NCBI RefSeq assembly: GCF_041886205.1
Contig: NZ_CP169029.1
DNA from: Escherichia coli
Lineage (GTDB): Bacteria > Pseudomonadota > Gammaproteobacteria > Enterobacterales > Enterobacteriaceae
Strand: one strand, 5' to 3'
Length of the DNA stretch: 64,000 nucleotides
The position numbers were made by a program, and so were the translations under genes. Every line of letters starts with the position of its first letter. Position 1 is the first letter of the stretch. This document shows positions 1-50,516 of this stretch, one piece after another. Below the pieces are notes generated by a model. That model searched no databases, was not told the DNA's origin, and saw nothing but the letters and a program-made list of their open reading frames with translations.

Positions 1-2215
1 CGTTGTGGATACCGCGTTTTTGGGCATCAAGCGGGTTGATCCACATTTCCTGACGGCAAGCCGCTTTCAGCACATCAACGTTGCCGTAAGTTGAGTGAAC
101 GCGAGATTTATAGTGGAAACCTGTAAGCTGCAGCGGATACTGTTTGTTCAGCGGATCCTGATAACTTTCAAAGCCCGGCGTGTAGATCGGCAGTGGATCG
201 ATCACATCGCCTTCTGGCAATTCCCAGGTAGCGGCAATGTCAGCCAGCGCCTGCGAATAAATCTCAATTTTGCCCGATGGCGTAGTCAGTGGGTTTGCCT
301 GCGGATCTTCACGGAAGGCTTTATAAGCAACGTGATGCCCTTGTGGGTCGCGCTTTTTAAAGATCCCCTGCTTGCGGAACTCTTCAAACGTTGGCAGTTC
401 AGGAATCGCTTCCCGCGACTGGGCATACAGATGCCGCATCCACTCTTCCTGGGTACGGCCTTCAGTAAACTGTTGCTCAACGCCAAGACGTTTTGCCAGT
501 TCGCTGGTCATTTCATAGATGGTCTTACATTCAAAGCGCGGTTTAATCACCTGATCGTTGAAAATCACGTAAGACATATTCCCGCAGGATGCATCCAGTG
601 CAAAGTCCATCTGTTCGGAAGCGGTGCAGTCAGGCAGCAGGATGTCAGCATATTTCGCCGATGAGGTCATGTGGCAGTCGATAACCACAATCAGCTCGCA
701 CTTCTTATCATCCTGAAGGATTTCATGGGTACGGTTGATTTCAGAATGCTGGTTAATCAGGCAGTTACCGGCATAGTTCCAGATCATTTTGATCGGCACA
801 TCCAGCTTATCTTTCCCGCGCACACCATCACGTAGCGCCGTCATTTCCGGGCCACGTTCAATGGCATCGGTCCACATAAACATAGAAATGCTGGTCTGGA
901 TCGGGTTTTCGAGGGTCGGCATACGGACAAACGGCAGGCTATAGGAACCTTCACGCGCGCCGGTGTTACCGCCGTTAATGCCGACGTTACCGGTCAGAAT
1001 CGCCAGCATCGAGATAGCGCGAGTCGCGATTTCGCCGTTGGCGTGACGCTGCGGGCCCCATCCCTGGCTGATAAACGCCGGTTTGGTACTGCCGATTTCC
1101 CGTGCCAGTTGAATGATTTTCTCTGCCGGGATACCGGTGATTTGCGAGGCCCATTGCGGCGTTTTAGCAACGCCATCTGGCCCGTCACCCAGAATATAGG
1201 CTTTATAGTGACCGTTTTTCGGCGCGCTAGCGGGCAGGGTTTTCTCATCGTAGCCAACGCAATATTTATCGAGGAATGCCTGATCCACCAGGTTTTCAGT
1301 GATCATGACGTACGCCAGACCGTTAACCAGTGCGGCATCTGTTCCTGGACGAATAGGGATCCACTCATCTTCGCGCCCGGCACCGGTGTCGGTATAGCGC
1401 GGATCGATGATGATCATGCGAGCATTAGATTTCTGACGCGCCTGTTCAAGATAGTAAGTCACCCCACCGCCACTCATTCGCGTTTCGCCAGGGTTATTAC
1501 CAAACAGCACTACCAGCTTACTGTTTTCGATATCCGACGGGCTGTTGCCATCTGCCCAGCCGCCGTAGGTATAGTTCAGACCTTCCGCAATTTGCGCGGA
1601 AGAGTAGTCACCGTAATGGTTCAGATAGCCGCCGCAGCAGTTCATCAGCCGCGCGACCAGGGTATTTCCCGGCGGCCAGGAGCGGGTCATGGTGCCACCC
1701 AGCGTACCGGTGCCATAGTTCAGATAGATGGATTCGTTGCCGTACTCTTTGATCAGGCGCTGCATATTGGTCGCGATGATGTCGTAGGCTTCTTCCCAGC
1801 TAATGCGCTCGAATTTGCCTTCACCGCGCGCCCCGACTCGTTTCATCGGATATTTCAGGCGGTCCGGATTGTAGACACGGCGACGCATGGAACGCCCACG
1901 CAGGCAGGCGCGAACCTGGTGCAGGCCGTCGTAATTGTCATCGCCGGTATTGTCCGTTTCGACATATTTGATTTCACCGTCCACGACGTGCATACGTAGC
2001 GGGCAGCGACTACCACAGTTAACTGTACAGGCGCTCCAGATAACCTTTTCGTCTGATTTTGTTGGAATGGCGCTATCGACAGCGTGCGCAATCCGACTAA
2101 AAGGTAATGTTAATGCGCTGCTGGCCATTGCCAGGCCGCCGATCGCTGTCGTTTTTACCAAACCACGGCGACTCACCTCAGCAGCCAATACCGCATCAGG
2201 GATTTTCGTTTTCAT
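1..2215 (-). CDS. dmsA: Anaerobic DMSO reductase catalytic subunit DmsA, 5' portion; C-terminus lies beyond the window start
   Basis: Reverse-complement translation from the ATG at 2215-2213 gives MKTKIPDAVLAAEVSRRGLVKTTAIGGLAMASSALTLPF, a twin-arginine (SRR) signal typical of DmsA. The ORF runs off the window edge, so it is absent from the ORF track; plus-strand track ORFs here are antisense artefacts. Confidence 0.85.
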   Translation of the reverse strand, partial: MKTKIPDAVLAAEVSRRGLVKTTAIGGLAMASSALTLPFSRIAHAVDSAIPTKSDEKVIWSACTVNCGSRCPLRMHVVDGEIKYVETDNTGDDNYDGLHQVRACLRGRSMRRRVYNPDRLKYPMKRVGARGEGKFERISWEEAYDIIATNMQRLIKEYGNESIYLNYGTGTLGGTMTRSWPPGNTLVARLMNCCGGYLNHYGDYSSAQIAEGLNYTYGGWADGNSPSDIENSKLVVLFGNNPGETRMSGGGVTYYLEQARQKSNARMIIIDPRYTDTGAGREDEWIPIRPGTDAALVNGLAYVMITENLVDQAFLDKYCVGYDEKTLPASAPKNGHYKAYILGDGPDGVAKTPQWASQITGIPAEKIIQLAREIGSTKPAFISQGWGPQRHANGEIATRAISMLAILTGNVGINGGNTGAREGSYSLPFVRMPTLENPIQTSISMFMWTDAIERGPEMTALRDGVRGKDKLDVPIKMIWNYAGNCLINQHSEINRTHEILQDDKKCELIVVIDCHMTSSAKYADILLPDCTASEQMDFALDASCGNMSYVIFNDQVIKPRFECKTIYEMTSELAKRLGVEQQFTEGRTQEEWMRHLYAQSREAIPELPTFEEFRKQGIFKKRDPQGHHVAYKAFREDPQANPLTTPSGKIEIYSQALADIAATWELPEGDVIDPLPIYTPGFESYQDPLNKQYPLQLTGFHYKSRVHSTYGNVDVLKAACRQEMWINPLDAQKRGIHN

Positions 2216-2385
2216 AATGGCTCACTCAAGCTTGCTCACGATTGATTCCAGTAACAAACCGTATTGTGTAATTATTTCTATAGCAGCTCGCTATATAGGT
2301 TTGTATACATCGAATAATTTGAAAATCAAAGAGATAGGTAGATTTTCACTCGAAAGTAGTATTACGTGTAAGTGAGGAGTAATTA

Positions 2386-2399
2386 TTGTTCGGTATCAA
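2386..2399 (-). promoter_or_regulatory. Candidate FNR binding site in the dmsA promoter region
   Basis: TTGTTcggtATCAA matches the FNR consensus TTGAT-N4-ATCAA in 9 of 10 half-site positions and lies upstream of dmsA, a known FNR-activated operon. Confidence 0.45.
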
Positions 2400-2407
2400 A
2401 GGGAGAC

Positions 2408-2434
2408 AAAAAAAGCGCCCGCAGGCGCTTTTTA
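2408..2434 (-). terminator. Intrinsic terminator downstream of serS (palindromic, possibly bidirectional)
   Basis: aaagcgcc-cgca-ggcgcttt hairpin flanked by A-run and T-run, immediately 3' of the serS stop. Confidence 0.5.
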
Positions 2435-2453
2435 GATTCAGAAAAATTGGGTA

Positions 2454-3767
<1,314 letters not shown>

Positions 3768-3836
3768 TTAAATGGGAGATGTGGCCACAGCCTGCGACCA
3801 CAGGGATACAGTAACAACATTACCGCAACGATAACA

Positions 3837-5180
3837 TTAACGGTAGCGTTTTATGGGGCTATTTTGATCCTGTTCAGCCAGCCAGGCGAGCTTTTCGCCA
3901 ATCTTGCCTTCAAGGCCCCTGTTTGTCGGGAAATAATAGCGTGTTTGTGCTATTTCCGGCGGGAAGTAAACCTCACCGGCAGCATAAGCGTTTGCTTCAT
4001 CATGAGCGTAACGATATTCCTGCCCATAGCCCATTTCCTTCATTAATTTCGTCGGCGCATTACGCAAATGAACCGGTACGTCATAATCCGGGCGTTCGCG
4101 AGCATCGGCCAGCGCGGCTTTAAACGCAGTGTAGACAGCATTGCTTTTTGGCGCGCAGGCCAGGTAAACAATCGCCTGAGCAATGGCGCGTTCACCTTCC
4201 GCCGGGCCAACGCGAGTAAAGCAATCCCAGGCCGCAATTGCCACCTGCATCGCTCGTGGATCAGCGTTACCCACATCTTCAGACGCTATCGCCAAACAGC
4301 GACGCGCGACATATAACGGATCGCCACCAGCGGTAATAATTCGCGCATACCAGTACAGCGCCGCATCGGGTGCGCTACCACGTACCGACTTATGCAGTGC
4401 GGAAATGAGATCGTAAAAGCGATCGCCTTTGTTATCAAAGCGGGCGCTACGTTCACCGGCGATTTCGGTCAGTAATTCAGGCTTCAGGACCCGCTTACCG
4501 CGATCATCGACTTCGGCCATATCCGCCATCATTTCCAGCGTATTTAACGCCCGCCGCGCGTCGCCATTCACCAGTTCTGCAATGGCACGTCGTGTTTCAT
4601 CTGGCAGAACAATATCCTGACCACCATAGCCACGGGTTTTGTCTTCCATCGCCTGAGTTAGTACTTGCTCAATATCCTCTGTACTCAGGGATTTCAACAG
4701 ATAAACACGGGCACGGGAAAGCAGTGCCGAATTAAGCTCAAACGACGGGTTTTCAGTGGTTGCGCCAATAAAAGTGATGGTGCCGTCTTCAATATGTGGC
4801 AGAAATGCATCCTGCTGGCTTTTGTTGAATCGGTGCACTTCGTCAACAAAAAGAATAGTGCGGCGACCTGCATTGCGGTTTTGCCGGGCGCGCTCGATCG
4901 CCTCGCGAATCTCTTTCACGCCAGAGGTGACGGCAGAAATACGTTCCACATCAGCGTTCGCATAGCGGGCAATCACTTCAGCGAGGGTTGTTTTGCCGGT
5001 ACCCGGCGGCCCCCAGAGGATCATAGAATGTAAATGCCCGGCTTCGATAGCGCGCGGCAACGGCTTCCCCGCAGCCAGCAAATGTTGCTGGCCGATATAC
5101 TGTGCTAAATTTTCTGGCCGCATACGCGCGGCCAGAGGTTGAAAAGTATTATCCGAAAAATCGAGCGACAGATTGCTCAC
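3837..5180 (-). CDS. rarA: Replication-associated recombination protein A (AAA+ ATPase)
   Basis: 447-aa ORF with Walker [10 protein letters not shown]; RarA/MgsA-like sequence; conserved position between serS and lolA. Confidence 0.95.
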
Positions 5181-5190
5181 TCAGGTGCCT

Positions 5191-5802
5191 CTACTTACGT
5201 TGATCATCTACCGTGACGCCTTGCGGCGGGGTGAAGGTAAATTTCGCTGCATCCACAGCCCCATTTTGCTGGGATTTCAGTTGATAACTGCTGCGCTGAT
5301 CGTCCTGCTCCACCGCGCTAAACTGATGGATTGTGCCATCACGTCCCACGTTAATGGTGAACTGCTTCAGATTGCCATTGCTGGCTTTCGGCGTCAGGAC
5401 AAAGTCATCGCCATTCTGTTTGATATTGTACTGCTGCCAGTCGCTGGACTGGTTGCGGGCAATCAGCATAAACGGCGTATTACCGGTGGCATCTTTCAGC
5501 CAGGTTGCCGTAGCTTGCTCAACGAACGGGTTATAGAACCACAGTGTTTTACCGTCAGAAACCAGAATGCTTTCATCAGGTTGTGTCATATGCCAGTTGA
5601 ATAAGTTTGGACGTTTCACCCACAGATCGCCCTGACCTTCCTGCACCGCCGCGCCGCTACCGTCAGTCACTTTTTGTGTGAAGCTGGCGTGGAAGCTGCT
5701 GACTTTATCCAGGCGGCTTTTCAGATCGCTTGCGGCATCAGCCCAAACGCTGCTTGCTACTAAGCTTGAGAGTAATGCACAGGTGATGGCAATTTTTTTC
5801 AT
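5191..5802 (-). CDS. lolA: Outer-membrane lipoprotein carrier protein LolA
   Basis: ORF track 5191..5805; start trimmed to the second Met to give the 203-aa LolA beginning [21 protein letters not shown] (signal peptide). Confidence 0.93.
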
Positions 5803-5913
5803 CATTATTCCTCAAATTACGTCACTCCCGATCGGGAGTTCCCTCTACTCTCTATTCCAGGCTAATAATCAGCTTGAGGAAAGAAGAAAATACTGAATTT
5901 TCAGTTGATAGAG

Positions 5914-5948
5914 TGCCGGATGCGACGCTACCGCGCCTTATCCGGCAA
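5914..5948. repeat. REP (repetitive extragenic palindrome) element
   Basis: gtgccggatgcgacgctaccgcgccttatccggca matches the GCCGGATG...CTTATCCGGC REP core; intergenic between lolA and ftsK. Confidence 0.5.
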
Positions 5949-5956
5949 TGCATTAA

Positions 5957-8900
5957 TTAGTCAAACGGCGGTGGGGCCAGCACTTCACGATTACCGTTGT
6001 GCCCCTGTTCGCTGACAATCCCCTGCGCTTCCATCTGTTCGATAATACGCGCTGCACGGTTATAACCAATGCGGAACTGACGCTGTACGCCTGAAATTGA
6101 CGCTTTGCGTTTTTCAGTGACAAACTGCACCGCCTGATCGAACAACGGATCCAGTTCTTCAGCGCCATCGAAACCGCCCGCGCCACCTTCGCTTTCGCTG
6201 TCGGAGGTGATGCCATCAATATACTGTGGGCGACCACGCGCTTTCCAGTCCTGCACTACGGCATGAACTTCCTGATCGCGAACAAAAGCACCATGGACAC
6301 GTACCGGTAACGTGGAGTTCGGCCCAGAGTAGAGCATATCCCCCATACCCAGCAGTGATTCCGCACCAGCCTGATCAAGAATGGTACGTGAGTCAATCTT
6401 ACTGGATACGGTAAAGGCGATACGGGTCGGAATATTCGCTTTAATCAGACCAGTAATAACATCAACCGATGGACGCTGAGTTGCCAGTACGAGGTGGATA
6501 CCCGCGGCACGGGCTTTTTGCGCCAGACGTGCTATCAGCTCTTCCACTTTTTTACCTACCGTCATCATCAGGTCGGCAAATTCGTCCACCAACACCACAA
6601 TGTATGGTTCTTTTTTCAGCACCGGATGCTGGGCGTCCATACTGTCACCCGGCTTCCAGTACGGGTCTGGAATCGGACGCATCATGCGATCGGCTTCAGC
6701 AATTTTTTCGTTATAACCCGCCAGATTACGCACACCCAGCGCAGACATCAGTTTATACCGACGCTCCATCTCGTTAACACACCAGCGCAGCGCGTTGGCG
6801 GCATCTTTCATATCAGTAACGACTTCCGTTAACAGGTGCGGAATGCCTTCATACACCGAAAGCTCCAGCATTTTCGGGTCGATCATGATGAAACGCACAT
6901 CTTCTGGCTGTGCTTTATAAAGCATGCTCAGGATCATCGCGTTCACACCGACAGATTTACCGGAACCGGTAGTCCCCGCAACCAACAAGTGCGGCATTTT
7001 CGCCAGATCGGCAACCACCGGCTCACCGGCGATATCTTTACCCAGCACCACGGTTAATGGCGACGGATTATCGCGGAATTTGGCGTTATCCAAAACTTCG
7101 CGCAGATAAACGGTTTGTCGTTTTTTATTTGGTAACTCCAGACCTACATAGGGTTTGCCAGGAATAACTTCAACGACACGCACCGCCACCGTCGAAAGTG
7201 AACGGGCAAGGTCCCGTGACAAGTTAGAAATGCGCGCCGCTTTTACGCCAGGAGCCAGGTTAAGTTCAAAGCGAGTGATAACCGGCCCCGGAGAGTAATT
7301 GACGACATCGGCTTTAATACGGAAATCAGCCAGACGCGCTTCCACCAGACGAGCCATTTGTTCAAGCGCAAAGGTATCTACCGGCTCCACTTCGCTCGGC
7401 GGCGGTGTCAGCAAATCCAGAGAAGGCAGCGGCGTCGTCGGTTTATGCAACGGACGGCTGTCGCCATTACGCATCAACAGCGGATGAAGCAGGGTATCCT
7501 GCTGCTGCGGTGCAACCGGTTGTTGCGGCTGCTGATACTGCTGCTGCGGCGCAACTGGTTGTTGCGGCTGCTGATATTGCGGCTGTGGCGCAACCGGTTG
7601 TTGCGGCTGCTGATATTGTGGCTGCGGCGCAACCTGCTGTTGTGGCTGCTGATACTGCGGCTGCTGATATTGCTGCTGTGGCGCAACCGGCTGTTGTGGC
7701 TGCTGATACTGCTGCTGCGGTGCAACCGGTTGTTGCGGCTGCTGTACAGGTTCAACAATTGGCGTAAACAACGGTTCGTGTGGACCATCATCCAGCAACG
7801 CTTTCATTGGCGAAAATTCAAAATCATCCAGCGAGAACGGATTCGCCCCAGCCGGTTGTTCGCCGGAATAACGTTGTTGTTGAGTTTGCGCAAACTGACG
7901 AGCCAGTTCAGCCTCTGCCGCAGCATCTGCATCTTCTGCGTTTACGGGCACATCATGTTGATACTGTTCGCCATAGCGTTGCTGCTGTGTCTGGGCGAAC
8001 TGACGTGCCAGTTCATCCTGCTGCATCGCATCGATTTCATCATCGTTGTACTGATCGCCAGAATCGTACTGATTGCGCTGGGCTTCACGGGCTTTTTCTT
8101 CCGCCGCACGCTGTGAGGGCAGCTTAATACCGTAAGACGCCAGTTCACGACGAGTTGGCACGCGGATACGTTTCGGTCGTGGCAACTGCGGGCCAATCCC
8201 CTCTTTGACCTGCGGACGCGGTCCACCGCTATTTGCCAGACTGAAGACTGGCGCGGCAACGGTTGCGGCAGCCCCCGTCGCCAGTGTCGCTTTTTTCACG
8301 CCAGATGCCAGCGGAGAAACAGCGGCAGCGGTTTCTACTGGAGGTACTGCTGCAACAGAAGGTGCTTTCAGCGAAGATTTGATCGGTTCTGGTTCTTTAA
8401 CCGGTTCTGGAATCGGTTGATACCAGGCCGCAAGTTGTTCACGTTCACGGGCACGCTTCTCTTCCACTTCTTCAAAGTAGTAAAGCGGAGGACGCGCGGG
8501 TTTTGTCTCTTCTACAACGGGTTCAGGTTCCACAACAGGCTGCTGTTCAACAGGTTGCGGCTGTTGGTACAACGGTTCCTGAGCGGCTGGCTGCTGATAA
8601 GTTTGCTCAGTCTGGTATGTAGACTGTGGAGCAAAAGTGGATTGCTGCTCTTCGGCTTGCCAGGCGTTACCTGCCACCGGTTGTTCTGGCGCGGGGGCGT
8701 AATACGGTTGCTGAACAGGTTGTTCCGCCGCAGGAGCGTAGTAAGGTTGTTGCACAGGTTGTTCAGCTGCAGGCGCATAATACGGCTGCTGTGGCTGTAC
8801 AGGTTGTTGCAGCGGCTCATTATATTGCACTGCAGGCTGCGCATATTGTGGCTGCTGTGGGTAACCTTCCGGTGCAGGAGCAATAACCGGCTCTCCCGTT

Positions 8901-45928: not shown

Positions 45929-47410
45929 CTACACTAACCCCAGGCGCTGAAACTGCTCTGGCGGCGCATCATTGTCTTTCATCAACTGAATCAGCAACGC
46001 GATCATCCGGGCCTCGATCGCATCATCATGAATCGGATGCAGCTGCTGCGGATCGTTTTGCAGATCAAACAGCAAATGACCAAACTGATTCAGCCCCTTA
46101 TATTTCTCCTGTGCCGGGATGCGTAGCACCTTTAACCCTTTGGTGAAACGAAACGGTGGAGCCAGCGATAAAGCCCGCATCTCATCCACCGGATAGCGGC
46201 TGTTCATTTTGCAAGCCATTAAGGTGTAGTTAGCAATATCATCCTCACGCCCCGGCAGCGCGGCACGCATATACACATAACGCCCATCGGTTACGTTGAC
46301 ATGACCACTGAAGACACCAAATATAACCGCACTGCGTACCGGTTCATCGTGGCTGACCGTTTTCGCCAGCGGTTGCCCCTGCACATCGGGCGGCACCGGC
46401 TGCTGAAAAAAGTCATACAACGTAGGTGCCCAGTCGATCATCTGCACCAGCGCCTGACGCCGTTCGCCTTTTACACCGCTGCGCGGATCCCATATAAACA
46501 GCGGGTTATTCGCCACTTCGTTGTAATAAGGCATCTGGTTTTTCGCCCACCAGCCATGCTCACCAAGTAAAAAACCGTGGTCGGTGCCAACAATCAGCAT
46601 GGTGTCTCGCCACAGATCGTGCTCATCCATCAGGTCGAGAATGCGCCCCAGGTTACGATCGCACATCGATACCAGCGAGCGATATCGGCAGCGGATATGC
46701 TCCACGGCCTCGTCGCTTTCCTGAACCCTGCCACGTGGCCAGTCATAATACGGCCCGCTCCAGTCATCCTCATATAACGAAAGGTACTCTTCCGTTGTGT
46801 AAAACGGCTCGTGCGGATCAAACGTTTCGACCTGCAATAACCAGTTATCTTGCGCGTGGTTTTTGTGGATAAATGCACAACCCGCGTCAAAGACTTTGGT
46901 TTGGGGAAAATCCGCTTCCTGCTGAATATATTCCCGGTTGGCCCAGTCATGACGCCACAGGCCAGAAACACCGCCGCCGGTCTGCTTTTGCGGCTCCCGT
47001 AGCACCTCGGGAATAGGCGGTTGCGCAACGCTCGCCTGCCAGTGATCGCCTTCCTGGCCGCGCACAATCTCCCATGAACTGTAGCGATTATGGTAATTTC
47101 CGCCACCATCTTCCCAGTAATGCAAATGATCGCTTATCAGGTGGGTATAGATCCCCGCCTTTGTAAGCAGCTCCGGCATGGAGTCGTCAAACGGTTCTAA
47201 CGGCCCCCACTCCCGGTGCAGAAAATTGCATCGCCCGGTATGCAGCTCCCGTCGGGCGGGCATGCAGGGCATACTCCCGACGTAGCTGTTTTCAAAGGTG
47301 GCGGCATGTGCCGCCAGGCGTTGGAAGTTCTCTGCTTTTGTCAATAAGTCGCCATACGGGGGTAAATATCTTTTGTTCAGGCTATCGAACAGGAGAATAA
47401 TGGCTTTCAT
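45929..47410 (-). CDS. Cys-type (formylglycine) sulfatase, predicted cytoplasmic (accessory)
   Basis: 493-aa ORF; intact sulfatase signature C-x-P-x-R-x4-T-G (CMPARRELHTGR) near residue 48; no N-terminal signal peptide (MKAIILLFDSLNKRYLPPYGD); ATG at 47410. Confidence 0.85.
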   Translation of the reverse strand: MKAIILLFDSLNKRYLPPYGDLLTKAENFQRLAAHAATFENSYVGSMPCMPARRELHTGRCNFLHREWGPLEPFDDSMPELLTKAGIYTHLISDHLHYWEDGGGNYHNRYSSWEIVRGQEGDHWQASVAQPPIPEVLREPQKQTGGGVSGLWRHDWANREYIQQEADFPQTKVFDAGCAFIHKNHAQDNWLLQVETFDPHEPFYTTEEYLSLYEDDWSGPYYDWPRGRVQESDEAVEHIRCRYRSLVSMCDRNLGRILDLMDEHDLWRDTMLIVGTDHGFLLGEHGWWAKNQMPYYNEVANNPLFIWDPRSGVKGERRQALVQMIDWAPTLYDFFQQPVPPDVQGQPLAKTVSHDEPVRSAVIFGVFSGHVNVTDGRYVYMRAALPGREDDIANYTLMACKMNSRYPVDEMRALSLAPPFRFTKGLKVLRIPAQEKYKGLNQFGHLLFDLQNDPQQLHPIHDDAIEARMIALLIQLMKDNDAPPEQFQRLGLV

Positions 47411-47422
47411 TGCTCATCCCTT

Positions 47423-47743
47423 TTATTTGTTTATCAGATAAGGGAAATGCTGTTGGACGACTTCATAAATCTGTGCACCAATCGTTTCACCATCCATAAT
47501 ATTTTCAATCGGGATCAGATATTGCCCGTGTTTCGGGTCCAGACTGACTACGTCGAGTAATTTTTTGGAAATAGCAAAAATATCTGCCCAGTCGGTAAAT
47601 CCTCCCACCTCACCTGCGGCAGTATGTTCCATTTCAACTTTGAACTCATATTTCGTCAGTGCTTTTTTAACGACCGTTTGTAACATCACGCTACTACCGA
47701 CACCATAACCACAGACAAACAGAATATTAATTGTATCTTTCAT
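47423..47743 (-). CDS. PTS EIIB component, ascorbate/galactitol-type (accessory)
   Basis: 106-aa ORF with N-terminal phospho-Cys loop ILFVCGYGVGSS, resembling UlaB-type EIIB; tightly spaced between the EIIC and sulfatase genes. Confidence 0.85.
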   Translation of the reverse strand: MKDTINILFVCGYGVGSSVMLQTVVKKALTKYEFKVEMEHTAAGEVGGFTDWADIFAISKKLLDVVSLDPKHGQYLIPIENIMDGETIGAQIYEVVQQHFPYLINK

Positions 47744-47764
47744 TTTTACATCCTTAATAGTGAA

Positions 47765-49090
47765 TTATCCCGCGTAAGGACCAAGGTGGAATGTTGCAGC
47801 GATAAATTTCAGAACTTCACAAATAGCAGGCCATACAGTTGCCCAGTCAAATATTCCTGTCCAGCCGACGCCATTTTCAGCAAGCCCGGTTAACGGAATA
47901 GCCCACACCGTACCGAAGGTCTGAATAATACCCAGCAAGAAGGTACAGATAATTACGGAGCGGTATCCGCCCATGCGGTTTGCTAAAACGCCAATCGGGC
48001 CGCCTGAGAAAAATAACGGTACAAAGCCTGGCAATACCATAATGGGGCTGTGGATCAGTAATAAGATACCCATCGAGAAAATGGTGCCAAAAGTACAGAA
48101 GACAAAACCTAACGTTGCGGCTTTGGGTGAAAAAGGCAACAGCGCGGCGACATCGACGGCGGGAATGGCATTAGGAATAAAGCGATCCTGCCAGCCTTTA
48201 AAAGAACCGTTAATTTCACCGACCATCATGCGCACGCCCTGCAACAGAATGACCATGTACATGGAGAACTGTAAGCCCAGGTTGATAATATAGATGTACC
48301 AGGGTTTACCTTTTGCCATCATCTGAACGTTATCGATGCCCGTGGAGAGCAGGAACCCGCCAACAAACAGCGTCATCACAATGGCGATAGCCGTCACGTT
48401 GTGGTTAAAAATCGCCAGCCAGCCGGGGAGTTTCAGGTTTTCAGCATCGTGCTTTTCCGGGTCGCCAAATTTATGCGCGAATTTGGAGAAAAACCACAAA
48501 CCCAACATCTGGTTATGGGCAATGGTAAAACCGGCATCTTTGGTCACTTTGGCAATGGGTTTAGCAATGAGCGTGGTGGAAAAAGCCCAGAATATACCCG
48601 TTAATACCCCGGCGATAATAATCGATGTAGTCCAGCTAAATCCTAACCAAAAAACGATTAACCATAATACTGCCTGAGAATGTGACACACCGGTATTACC
48701 GGTCAGGAATATTCCTTTGGCACCGGTATAGCGACCAAACAGCACCAGTAAGAGGTTGGTAAAAAACGCCAGAACAAATACATAACCTACGTAACCAAAA
48801 TTATCCCCCAACGCAATTTGCGTTGCGGCTTTCATGGCGTAGGAATCCATTAAATAACCGTGAACGCCATAGGCTTTACTTACCGCTTCTGCCACCGGTT
48901 TAAAGGTTGCGGAAAACTGAAAACCACCAAATAGCACCATCATTAATCCCACCATGGCACTGACCATACCGGTGATTATTTTGATGGGCGATTTTTTATC
49001 GAGGGCATAACCAATGCCCACCAGCAAACCAATTAATATTGCGGGTTCGGTTAAAAACGTTTGAATAACATCTATGAATTTGGCAAACAT
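47765..49090 (-). CDS. PTS EIIC permease, ascorbate (UlaA/SgaT) family (accessory)
   Basis: ORF track 47765..49108; clear similarity to UlaA (e.g. LQGVRMMVGEI...PGFVPLFFSGGPIGVLANRMGGYRS versus UlaA TQGVRMFVAEL...[25 protein letters not shown]). Start preferred at ATG 49090 (MFAKFIDV), which has a GGAGGG Shine-Dalgarno 10 nt upstream; 49108 is the alternative. Confidence 0.85.
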   Translation of the reverse strand: MFAKFIDVIQTFLTEPAILIGLLVGIGYALDKKSPIKIITGMVSAMVGLMMVLFGGFQFSATFKPVAEAVSKAYGVHGYLMDSYAMKAATQIALGDNFGYVGYVFVLAFFTNLLLVLFGRYTGAKGIFLTGNTGVSHSQAVLWLIVFWLGFSWTTSIIIAGVLTGIFWAFSTTLIAKPIAKVTKDAGFTIAHNQMLGLWFFSKFAHKFGDPEKHDAENLKLPGWLAIFNHNVTAIAIVMTLFVGGFLLSTGIDNVQMMAKGKPWYIYIINLGLQFSMYMVILLQGVRMMVGEINGSFKGWQDRFIPNAIPAVDVAALLPFSPKAATLGFVFCTFGTIFSMGILLLIHSPIMVLPGFVPLFFSGGPIGVLANRMGGYRSVIICTFLLGIIQTFGTVWAIPLTGLAENGVGWTGIFDWATVWPAICEVLKFIAATFHLGPYAG

Positions 49091-49296
49091 CGTCGGAACG
49101 CCCTCCATAAGCGTACATTTCCGTTGTCAATGCATGAACCTTCTGCTGACGTTAATAATGCTTCAGGTATTTTTTATTTTTCGCTAAGCGATGCCTCTGC
49201 TAGTATTCGGTAAACGCACTGTAGTAATCAAAACAGTTCATTTAAAGATCTTATTTGATTATTTGTGATTTGATTTGCAAAAATAGCGCAATATAT

Positions 49297-49338
49297 AACC
49301 GTGATCGATCGGTTAATATTAATCGATCGATCACGGTT
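49297..49338. promoter_or_regulatory. 42-bp near-perfect palindrome between the rlmC stop and the PTS-sulfatase cassette promoter (operator, terminator or insertion-junction candidate)
   Basis: aaccgtgatcgatcggtt-aatatt-aatcgatcgatcacggtt: 18-bp arms with one mismatch around a central AATATT. Confidence 0.4.
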
Positions 49339-49388
49339 ATTATTTGGAATGGATGTATGCCGAAGTGATATTGATTTGAGTGATGTAT

Positions 49389-50516
49389 TTACATTTTTAC
49401 CAGCAGCGTCAGCACTTCATAGTGCGCGGTGTGCGGGAACATATCAAAAAGCTGTACCCGTTCAATACGAAACCCAGGCAGTTCGCGGATATCTTTCGCC
49501 ATAGTTTGGGCGTTACAGCTGGAGTAGATAATAAAACGCGGTGCCATCGTTGAGAGATAATCACACAGCGGTTTACCAATGCCGCGGCGCGGCGGGTTAA
49601 CCAGCACCAGCTCCGGCACCTCCCCCTGAGCGGTGGCAAACTGAGTGGAGTCCAGCGCCTGAAATTGCAAACGCGTTAAGCCCAGTTCAGCGGCTGACTG
49701 CTTTGCACAGGCAATGGCCTCTGGCGCAATTTCGATCCCGGTTAACTGCATGTCAGGCGTCGCGCAGTGTAAACCAAAGCCCCCCACACCGCAGAACAGA
49801 TCCCACATATGTTTAACCGGCAGCTGTCGTACCCAGTCGCGCGCGGTGGCGTACAACTGGCTGGCGACAGCCGGATTAGTCTGGAAGAAACTTTGCGGAC
49901 GGATCCACAGCGGTACGTCATTAAAACGCTCCGCCAGCGACTGTTGTTCGGTCAGGTAGATCTCCGTCTCCCCTTCCATAATCGCCATATGTACCGGCTG
50001 AATATTGACGGTAATAACTTTCAGCTGCGGTAGTTGTTCCTGTAACCACGGCAATGCCTTACGCAGTTGTGCCAGTTTGGTTTCAGAACGCAGTACAAAG
50101 CGCAGCATCATGCCGCCATCGCTCTGGCTTTCAGTCAGCAGAATGTATTTCAGTTCGCCACGCTTACGCGCCACGTTGTAGGGCGTTAACCCCGCTCGGG
50201 CGATAAACGGTTTTAGCGCCGCAAAAACGGGCGCAAATGAGGCAGGATAAAGCGGGCAGTCACAAAGGTCTTCTGGTGTGCCGTCGCGATGCAGCATACC
50301 GAGCAGTGGTTTTTCAACGCTACCACTCACCACCATTTTGGCTTTATTACGAAACCCTTGTTCCGGGCCTGACACCGGCGCGCACCATTCCTCAACCGGA
50401 AAGTCGGCGAGCAGATTTTTAAGATCGGCGGTTTTAGCGGAGAGTTGCTCTGGAATCGGCTGCGTTATCCACTGACAGGAACGACAGCGACCCGCGTCGT
50501 AAAGTGCGCACTGCAT
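49389..50516 (-). CDS. rlmC: 23S rRNA (uracil747-C5)-methyltransferase RlmC
   Basis: 375-aa ORF with N-terminal Cys cluster (CRSCQW) and SAM-dependent MTase motifs ([12 protein letters not shown]). Confidence 0.95.

Follow-up and report, generated by a model that had tools for sequence, protein, structure and literature searches.

A 64-kb stretch of Escherichia coli DNA (contig NZ_CP169029.1; the whole stretch is called the window below) carries a cassette of three same-direction minus-strand genes, which encode the EIIC and EIIB components of a phosphotransferase system (PTS) and a sulfatase, in that order, between rlmC and the convergent artJ gene. We interpret this cassette as a stripped-down enterobacterial form of a widely distributed "PTS plus cytoplasmic sulfatase" module that adds one substrate to the L-ascorbate pathway, and we give this interpretation a probability of about 0.5. 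The general mechanism, PTS uptake followed by desulfation in the cytoplasm with parts borrowed from core functions, is highly probable; that L-ascorbate 2-sulfate is the specific substrate is an even call. The link to ascorbate catabolism is the main point that was absent from the original prediction for this DNA, which had described a sulfatase without a signal peptide beside an incomplete PTS. The features on which the argument rests are as follows.

47765 to 49108, minus strand: PTS EIIC of the L-ascorbate family, 447 amino acids (aa), orthologue of Salmonella LT2 STM0884.
47423 to 47743, minus strand: PTS EIIB, 106 aa; its phosphorylatable Cys is part of VCGYGVGSS.
45929 to 47410, minus strand: Cys-type S1 sulfatase, predicted to be cytoplasmic, 493 aa.
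47234 to 47266, minus strand: formylglycine signature CMPARRELHTG, sulfatase residues 49 to 59 (regular-expression match).

The genes are separated by 21 nt (EIIC/EIIB) and 12 nt (EIIB/sulfatase), and 280 bp of noncoding sequence precede the EIIC gene.

One line of evidence for the link to ascorbate is the genomic context of related sulfatases. A genome scan found at least 594 stretches that encode a relative; among the matches listed, identity was 53 to 69%, and the hosts belonged to the Firmicutes, Actinobacteria, Chloroflexi, Planctomycetes, Proteobacteria, and Lokiarchaeota. The open reading frames (ORFs) of 86 loci were labeled by phmmer, using as queries the E. coli Ula proteins, the cassette proteins, AslB, YdeM, and two Firmicute EIIAs and DeoRs. 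With one exception (locus L017), sulfatases that score at least 730 bits against the window protein adjoin an orthologous EIIC-EIIB pair. In a neighbor-joining tree the PTS-linked sulfatases form a single clade of 25 tips that includes none of the 62 non-PTS relatives. This clade would be the branch of the family that works on PTS-delivered, hence phosphorylated, substrates. Complete modules in Firmicutes consist of a DeoR regulator, EIIC, EIIB, sulfatase, and EIIA, often with an anaerobic sulfatase-maturating enzyme (anSME) alongside. Among the 18 non-enterobacterial PTS-linked loci, a DeoR-type regulator is adjacent in 15, an EIIA (PF00359) is adjacent or fused to the sulfatase C terminus in 10 (the fusions are P0086, 635 aa, and P0044, 643 aa), and an anSME is nearby in 5. 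The anSMEs beside the PTS cassettes of L014, L015, and L024 pass the TIGR03942 cut-off, and in L097 a gene with Radical_SAM and SPASM domains (Pfam) adjoins the cassette.

Six of these 18 loci have ulaG and ulaD/E/F within 10 kb of the cassette:

L018, Neobacillus niacini: EIIA-EIIC-EIIB-sulfatase-ulaG-ulaD-ulaE-ulaF, on one strand with short gaps.
L008, Bacillus sp. SD088: ulaF-E-D-G-EIIA-DeoR, divergent from EIIC-EIIB-sulfatase.
L025, Clostridium sp.: ulaG-EIIA-EIIC-EIIB-sulfatase, then ulaF and ulaE.
L023, Bacillus sp. FJAT-50079: a UlaA-type PTS beside the cassette PTS.
L020 (Olsenella) and L026 (a metagenome-assembled genome of Oscillospiraceae): ula genes within 10 kb.

In L008, L018, and L025 the cassette PTS is the sole PTS detected by the probes in a complete ula cluster. 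Downstream of ulaF in the N. niacini locus (L018, 15650 to 16899), an anSME gene is split into five ORF fragments, which is either a pseudogene or an assembly error. The gut Firmicute locus L097 carries, directly upstream of its cassette (219 to 7154), a second sulfatase, a mannose-type PTS (EIIAB, EIIC, and EIID), and a GntR regulator, along with the radical-SAM/SPASM maturase and a TauE exporter; pairs of a PTS and a sulfatase may be a recurrent design.

The transporter itself resembles the ascorbate system. The cassette EIIC scores 959 bits against NCBIfam NF009550 (cut-off, 583) and 318 bits against the UlaA equivalog model, short of the 380 set as cut-off. With the NCBIfam models for ascorbate IIC and IIBC it obtains 318 to 353 bits, and its orthologues carry Pfam PF03611. 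Identity is 38% to E. coli UlaA (EcUlaA) over 432 residues and 57 to 69% to the cassette EIICs of Firmicutes; cassette EIICs are a group of their own, with 57 to 69% mutual identity and 37 to 39% identity to UlaA. Judged by these scores, the cassette EIIC is a member of the L-ascorbate PTS family and not a UlaA orthologue. Its counterpart in Salmonella Typhimurium LT2, STM0884, has been listed as "ulaA" (PMC3844500) and also appears in a table from transcription profiling of avirulent regulator mutants of S. Typhimurium (PMC2639726). The EIIB matches NCBIfam ascorbate IIB models weakly (43 to 45 bits) and is 29% identical to UlaB; its orthologues carry PF02302.

The pocket residues reported for EcUlaA (PMC6048161) were compared across 21 cassette EIICs. 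The vitamin C contacts Y87, H194, D314, F362, and R288 and the pivot glycines G58 and G286 are kept in all 21, and I358 and M410 are largely kept. Five positions are uniformly replaced by smaller residues (S59 to G, H135 to N, I136 to A/T/S, Q139 to A/S, and Q195 to N). In UlaA, Ser59 is reported to bond to O3 of ascorbate in the occluded state (PMC6048161). The pattern of residues fits a UlaA scaffold that would have added room on one side of the pocket.

In the route that we propose, the cassette EIIC would import sulfated L-ascorbate, most plausibly L-ascorbate 2-sulfate, and the cassette EIIB would phosphorylate it, presumably at C6, with phosphate passed to EIIB by a trans-acting EIIA, for which UlaC is the best candidate. 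Cys49 of the sulfatase would first be turned into formylglycine by a cytoplasmic maturase, which could be AslB, YdeM, or a further E. coli system. The sulfatase, acting in the cytoplasm, would then strip the sulfate to yield L-ascorbate-6-phosphate, and this product would be catabolized by UlaG and UlaDEF and would also serve as inducer, releasing UlaR. UlaG takes L-ascorbate-6-phosphate as its substrate, and UlaR takes it as its effector (PMC5934670). Because this one compound is both Ula substrate and UlaR inducer, an add-on cassette can use the core regulator, EIIA, maturase, and enzymes. The regulators of the cassette modules belong to the DeoR family, as does UlaR. Since free-standing modules lack a catabolic enzyme, what remains after desulfation has to be a standard intermediate, and L-ascorbate-6-phosphate fits. 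Animals produce L-ascorbate 2-sulfate as a metabolite of vitamin C. In humans, ascorbic acid 2-sulfate is a recognized vitamin C metabolite (e.g., PMC11322087), and the ula regulon of Sebaldella termitidis has been described as having a sulfatase gene "inserted" in it (PMC3219644). A literature search found no paper that ties a bacterial sulfatase or PTS to ascorbate sulfate. As a whole, a previously unrecognized gut-bacterial route, in which L-ascorbate 2-sulfate is imported by a PTS and desulfated in the cytoplasm by a sulfatase that is a native client of the maturation enzymes, is put forward tentatively, at somewhat less than even odds.

The enzyme at the center of this route has several features of a formylglycine-dependent sulfatase. 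The ORF matches Pfam Sulfatase PF00884 (E = 9e-27) and SGSH_C, and a search for [CS]x[PA]xRxxxxTG returned one match, CMPARRELHTG at residues 49 to 59, in agreement with the intact C-x-P-x-R-x4-T-G motif claimed earlier. Across 87 homologues drawn from many phyla, C49, P51, and R53 never vary, and T58 and G59 are conserved in at least 90%. Other invariant residues in this alignment include D9, R54, H65, R66, D94, H95, H97 to G103, H200 (in DPHEP), D277, and H278; K290 is nearly invariant. Of these, D9, H200, D277, H278, and K290 are candidates for the metal ligands and catalytic residues expected of S1 sulfatases (N-terminal Asp, His of the PHxP motif, Asp-His/Asn pair, and a downstream Lys). 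In the alignment with other S1 sulfatases, the invariant segment SDHxHYWEDGG (residues 93 to 103) falls opposite their "GKWH" region. An AlphaFold2 model built from the 87-sequence alignment has a mean predicted local distance difference test score (pLDDT) of 94.4; a model built from 16 sequences (pLDDT, 62.7) was discarded in its favor. Foldseek matched the model to dozens of solved S1 sulfatases at probability 1.00, and the best structural matches are S1 sulfatases and phosphonate monoester hydrolases (template modeling [TM] score of about 0.68, 16 to 19% identity). The best profile matches are SpAS1/2, GlcNAc-6-sulfatase, phosphonate monoester hydrolases, and choline sulfatase (E of about 1e-30).

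The N terminus of the sulfatase, MKAIILLFDSLN, contains a sole hydrophobic run of 6 residues that ends at D9, the invariant Asp at the close of the first predicted beta-strand (residues 2 to 8). The highest 19-residue Kyte-Doolittle mean across the whole protein is 0.81, and neither the N-terminal sequence nor the hydropathy scan revealed a signal peptide or membrane segment. The reading frame is interrupted by stops 2 and 4 codons 5′ of the ATG, and the stop codon of EIIB lies at a distance of 12 nt; a longer N terminus is therefore impossible, and these upstream stops ruled out a miscalled start that conceals a signal peptide. The start position is common to 15 of 16 aligned sulfatases, the other being shorter by six residues. 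The earlier claims that the enzyme lacks a signal peptide and is cytoplasmic both hold up; the predicted location is supported by the sequence and by the fact that a PTS delivers its product into the cytoplasm. The accompanying remark that such a location is unusual for enterobacterial sulfatases was overstated, since YidJ of K-12 is built alike; AslA and YdeN, in contrast, are Ser-type and exported. Within the family, the PTS-linked clade is set apart by an inserted Gly-rich loop, PQKQTGGGxSG (residues ~137 to 150; nt ~46961 to 47002), that is absent in non-PTS relatives and by Glu67 where those relatives have Ser. Extra basic residues specific to the PTS clade, which might hold a substrate phosphate, were sought, and only E67 and the one inserted loop emerged. 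As a speculation, the Gly-rich loop might bind the substrate phosphate.

The cassette lacks several parts of a complete module. A phmmer search of all ORFs of at least 60 aa in the 64 kb, with UlaC and two cassette-type EIIAs as queries, found no EIIA in the window (E ≤ 1e-5), and searches with AslB and YdeM found no maturase of this kind there (E ≤ 1e-3). No regulator for the cassette was found within the window either, and the other five enterobacterial cassette loci examined have neither an EIIA nor a regulator. The operon cannot run past the window because core genes bound it, rlmC upstream and the convergent artJ downstream; this excludes an EIIA or maturase gene just beyond the window in the same operon. 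Since the cassette is functional where it is kept, as strong purifying selection indicates, its EIIA and maturase must come from elsewhere. These results bear out the statements in the original prediction that the maturase is encoded elsewhere and that a trans-acting EIIA is required. The lack of an EIIA, a maturase, and a signal peptide is not a set of defects; the cassette is a minimal add-on that relies on core functions.

Those core functions are present. The segment from 45880 to 49390 is 100% identical to E. coli wlxctx60 (NZ_AP045833.1), and the wlxctx60 genome contains intact ulaR, ulaG, and ulaABCDEF at 388 to 395 kb and an intact aslB adjoining aslA at 4.507 Mb. Among 5,426 complete E. 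coli genomes, ulaBC is found in 5,422, aslB in 5,425, and ydeM in 5,346. The NCBIfam model "PTS ascorbate transporter subunit IIA" is the best model for six of seven cassette-linked EIIAs, and UlaC is the most economical candidate for the missing EIIA, with CmtB-type EIIAs second. AslB and YdeM are candidate maturases for the sulfatase. The anSMEs are cytoplasmic enzymes, and they adjoin sulfatase-family genes in anaerobes. Maturation genes neighbor relatives of the sulfatase in about 21 of the loci examined: an anSME is adjacent in 11 (phmmer), a Radical_SAM/SPASM gene in L097 (Pfam), and genes with a formylglycine-generating enzyme (FGE) domain in 9. Among non-PTS relatives, an FGE-domain gene is present in 9 loci and an anSME in 7.

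The distribution of the cassette was followed among the same E. coli genomes and in other genera. It is present in 566 of the 5,426, as a single copy that is always chromosomal. In K-12 the gap between rlmC and artJ consists of 198 bp of repetitive extragenic palindromic (REP) sequence and has no trace of the cassette. In Salmonella enterica, S. arizonae, and an Escherichia sp., too, rlmC and artJ directly flank the cassette; in Yokenella it occupies the same interval with several other genes inserted, and in Enterobacter the three genes are at a different site. The three-gene form is thus retained in at least four genera. Nucleotide identity to Salmonella is 77 to 82%, equal to that of rlmC and artJ, and the ratio of nonsynonymous to synonymous substitution rates (dN/dS) between E. 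coli and Salmonella or Enterobacter is 0.02 to 0.06 for all three genes, with synonymous sites saturated. These comparisons indicate a cassette that is old, vertically inherited, often lost, and functional where kept. Some E. coli lineages carry truncated sulfatase alleles (P0119, 323 aa, 148 member sequences; P0031, 378 aa, 39 contigs), and one comes from an enterohemorrhagic E. coli (EHEC) record; in one genome (H6, strain ET201) an IS1 insertion lies in the EIIC gene. Parts of the species are losing the cassette. An arylsulfotransferase gene (AssT, PF05935) adjoins the cassette in Enterobacter (L009, 6466 to 7881), and a 73-aa arylsulfotransferase remnant lies beside it in Yokenella (L099, 11542 to 11763); AssT is a second sulfate-ester function that accompanies the cassette.

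Upstream of the EIIC gene, alignment revealed a conserved block.

49221 to 49278, minus strand: conserved block of 58 bp, kept in Escherichia, Salmonella, Enterobacter, and Yokenella.

This block is probably the promoter and operator region of the cassette. A CRP-like element, TGCAA-N6-TCACA (49264 to 49279), overlaps it. A sigma-70 consensus scan of the minus strand from 49109 to 49388 found no promoter. The block and the K-12 ulaG-ulaA control region have in common the words AATCAyAAATAATC (13/14), GTTTTGATTA, and TGATTACT. They share ten 8-mers, compared with 2.95 ± 2.3 in shuffled controls; 2 of 300 shuffles reached the observed 8-mer count, and 13 of 300 reached the best 14-mer match. Coregulation of the cassette by UlaR is a lead suggested by these words, whose sharing could reflect the CRP site.

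Several observations weigh against the proposed place of the cassette in the ascorbate pathway. The word sharing with the ula control region is weakly significant and could be explained by the CRP site. In NZ_AP045833.1 the cassette (~1.45 Mb) and the ula genes (~0.39 Mb) are about 1 Mb apart. A CmtB-type model is second best for the cassette EIIAs and best in L025, and the low identity of EIIC to UlaA (38%) and of EIIB to UlaB (29%) means that cross-talk with UlaC is not guaranteed. Few conserved positions separate the PTS-clade sulfatases from non-PTS relatives, and the Lys of GKWH aligns with the invariant Asp94, followed by H95, in an alignment that is of low confidence there. A literature search on PTS-linked sulfatases and Salmonella locus tags found no functional study and no link to a substrate. 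Finally, in 12 of the 18 PTS-linked loci from outside the enterobacteria the module is free-standing and no ula gene occurs within 10 kb of it, and the non-PTS relatives (53 to 59% identity) adjoin other sulfatases, CUT1-type ABC sugar transporters, ROK regulators, and GH3 enzymes. The last context suggests sulfated glycan products and implies that the family is not intrinsically ascorbate specific, being one of cytoplasmic formylglycine-dependent sulfatases predicted to act on imported sulfated carbohydrates. These last two observations, with the five altered pocket residues of the cassette EIIC, also speak for a rival with the same architecture (PTS uptake, cytoplasmic desulfation, and EIIA and maturase in trans) in which the substrate is another sulfated sugar, sugar acid, or polyol and the ula neighbors stem solely from the shared ancestry of PTS loci of the L-ascorbate family. 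Against it stand the three complete ula clusters served by no other detected PTS, the retention of most ascorbate-contact residues, and the free-standing modules, whose product must join an existing pathway. We consider another substrate possible but unlikely.

Two further explanations concern the enzyme and the state of the cassette. The enzyme could be a formylglycine-dependent phosphatase or phosphonate monoester hydrolase that acts on the PTS product, for example, a 2-O-phosphorylated ascorbate or some other phosphoester. The best profile matches among solved structures include the SpAS/phosphonate monoester hydrolase group (4upi, 4upl, 4upk, and 2vqr), the metal ligands are, like those of that group, of the Asp-His type, Asp94 takes the alignment position where a sulfate-binding Lys is usual, and K-12 YidJ is annotated "sulfatase/phosphatase." Sulfur-specific neighbors nevertheless recur: other sulfatases beside non-PTS relatives, a TauE-family exporter adjoining the PTS cassette in L097, and the arylsulfotransferase gene or remnant by the cassette in Enterobacter and Yokenella. 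We know of no natural source of 2-phospho-ascorbate. A phosphatase role is accordingly improbable. Even less credible is a decaying, nonfunctional remnant left after loss of the EIIA, regulator, and maturase. Absence of the cassette from about 90% of E. coli genomes, including K-12, would suit such a remnant, as would the truncated alleles (323 to 378 aa, with 148 member sequences in one cluster) and the IS1 insertion in EIIC (H6). All three ORFs are intact in the window, however, the three-gene form persists in at least four genera with its conserved upstream block, and the low dN/dS values match those of the flanking core genes; the remnant was rejected on dN/dS.

The surroundings of the cassette are core genes, potFGHI-ybjO-rlmC on one side and artJ-artMQIP on the other, and its limits are marked by the following features.

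49389 to 50516, minus strand: rlmC, core gene upstream of the cassette on the same strand.
49296 to 49339, no strand assigned: near-perfect palindrome of 44 bp, TAACCGTGATCGATCG...CGATCGATCACGGTTA, just 3′ of the rlmC stop codon, with 20 stem pairs.
45879 to 45928, no strand assigned: GC-rich hairpin GCCGGAGTGGG...CCCACTCCGGC, read from the sequence between the convergent sulfatase and artJ stop codons.

The hairpin probably marks the 3′ end of the operon. The palindrome is kept in Salmonella, where both arms have changed with pairing preserved (CCGTG/CACGG to CCATG/CATGG); it was not seen in the Enterobacter upstream region that was read. An Rfam scan of 45700 to 49600 gave nothing above chance and no family for the palindrome, which is probably a terminator or insulator that separates rlmC from the cassette. 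Elsewhere in the window, an island of 32% GC that separates ybjQ from ybjP holds an ORF of 600 aa (38902 to 40704, minus strand). The sole RefSeq label of this ORF is "pentapeptide repeat-containing protein" (WP_238092862.1), and its composition suggests horizontal acquisition.

If the proposed route is correct, an accessory operon conserved in E. coli, Salmonella (STM0884 with the next two genes downstream), Enterobacter, and many gut Firmicutes would gain a function; its genes now carry only the annotations "sulfatase" and "PTS sugar transporter." A sulfated metabolite of host or dietary vitamin C would join the nutrients of the gut, and a minimal three-gene add-on would be seen to borrow its EIIA, repressor, maturase, and catabolic enzymes from core operons. 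The growth phenotype of aslB and ydeM mutants would then provide a screen for the long-suspected third formylglycine-forming system, and E. coli offers a natural cytoplasmic Cys-type sulfatase. The analysis also delineates a family of predicted cytoplasmic S1 sulfatases that is large and highly conserved and has no solved structure.

Among the closest known systems is UlaABC/UlaG/UlaDEF/UlaR of E. coli. The cassette shares with it the EIIC family (PF03611), the EIIB fold, and, in complete relatives, DeoR-type regulators and the EIIA family; relatives of the cassette lie inside ulaG/D/E/F clusters, and most ascorbate-contact residues are kept. It differs in an EIIC that falls below the UlaA cut-off and has five smaller pocket residues, in the sulfatase gene that follows EIIB, and, in enterobacteria, in lacking its own EIIA, regulator, and catabolic genes. 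A PTS encoded with a sulfatase is also found in Streptococcus pneumoniae SPH1922-SPH1929, which comprises a lactose-type PTS, a sulfatase, a sulfatase-modifying enzyme, and TauE (PMC3302838). There, too, desulfation of an imported phosphorylated substrate is implied; in contrast to the cassette, the PTS is of the lactose/cellobiose type and the maturase and EIIA are within the operon. This likeness is one of gene content alone.

The other comparisons concern the sulfatase. Putative sulfatase YidJ of K-12 likewise has no signal peptide, a Cys-type C-x-P-x-R motif (at residue 52), and an adjacent transporter gene (YidK). YidJ belongs to another S1 subfamily, with "putative sulfatase yidJ" structures matching the window sulfatase at E of ~3e-7, and because its partner is a Na+/solute symporter and not a PTS, its substrate would not be phosphorylated. 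Several cytoplasmic S1 enzymes of solved structure, namely, SpAS1/SpAS2 (4upi and 4upl), the phosphonate monoester hydrolases (4upk, 2vqr, and 2w8s), and choline sulfatase BetC (6fny), have the S1 fold, the Cys-type motif, and the Asp-His metal-ligand pair and are among the best profile and fold matches, but they are only 16 to 19% identical to the window sulfatase (TM score, ~0.6 to 0.68). These enzymes are not known to have signal peptides. Relative to solved S1 enzymes, the window family has the invariant SDHxHYWEDGG, and its PTS clade has the extra Gly-rich loop at ~137 to 150. The AslA/AslB and YdeN/YdeM pairs of E. coli also involve formylglycine-dependent S1 sulfatases, and AslB and YdeM are core genes. 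AslA and YdeN are Ser-type enzymes with a signal peptide and an adjacent maturase gene, whereas the window enzyme is Cys-type, cytoplasmic by prediction, and encoded far from any maturase.

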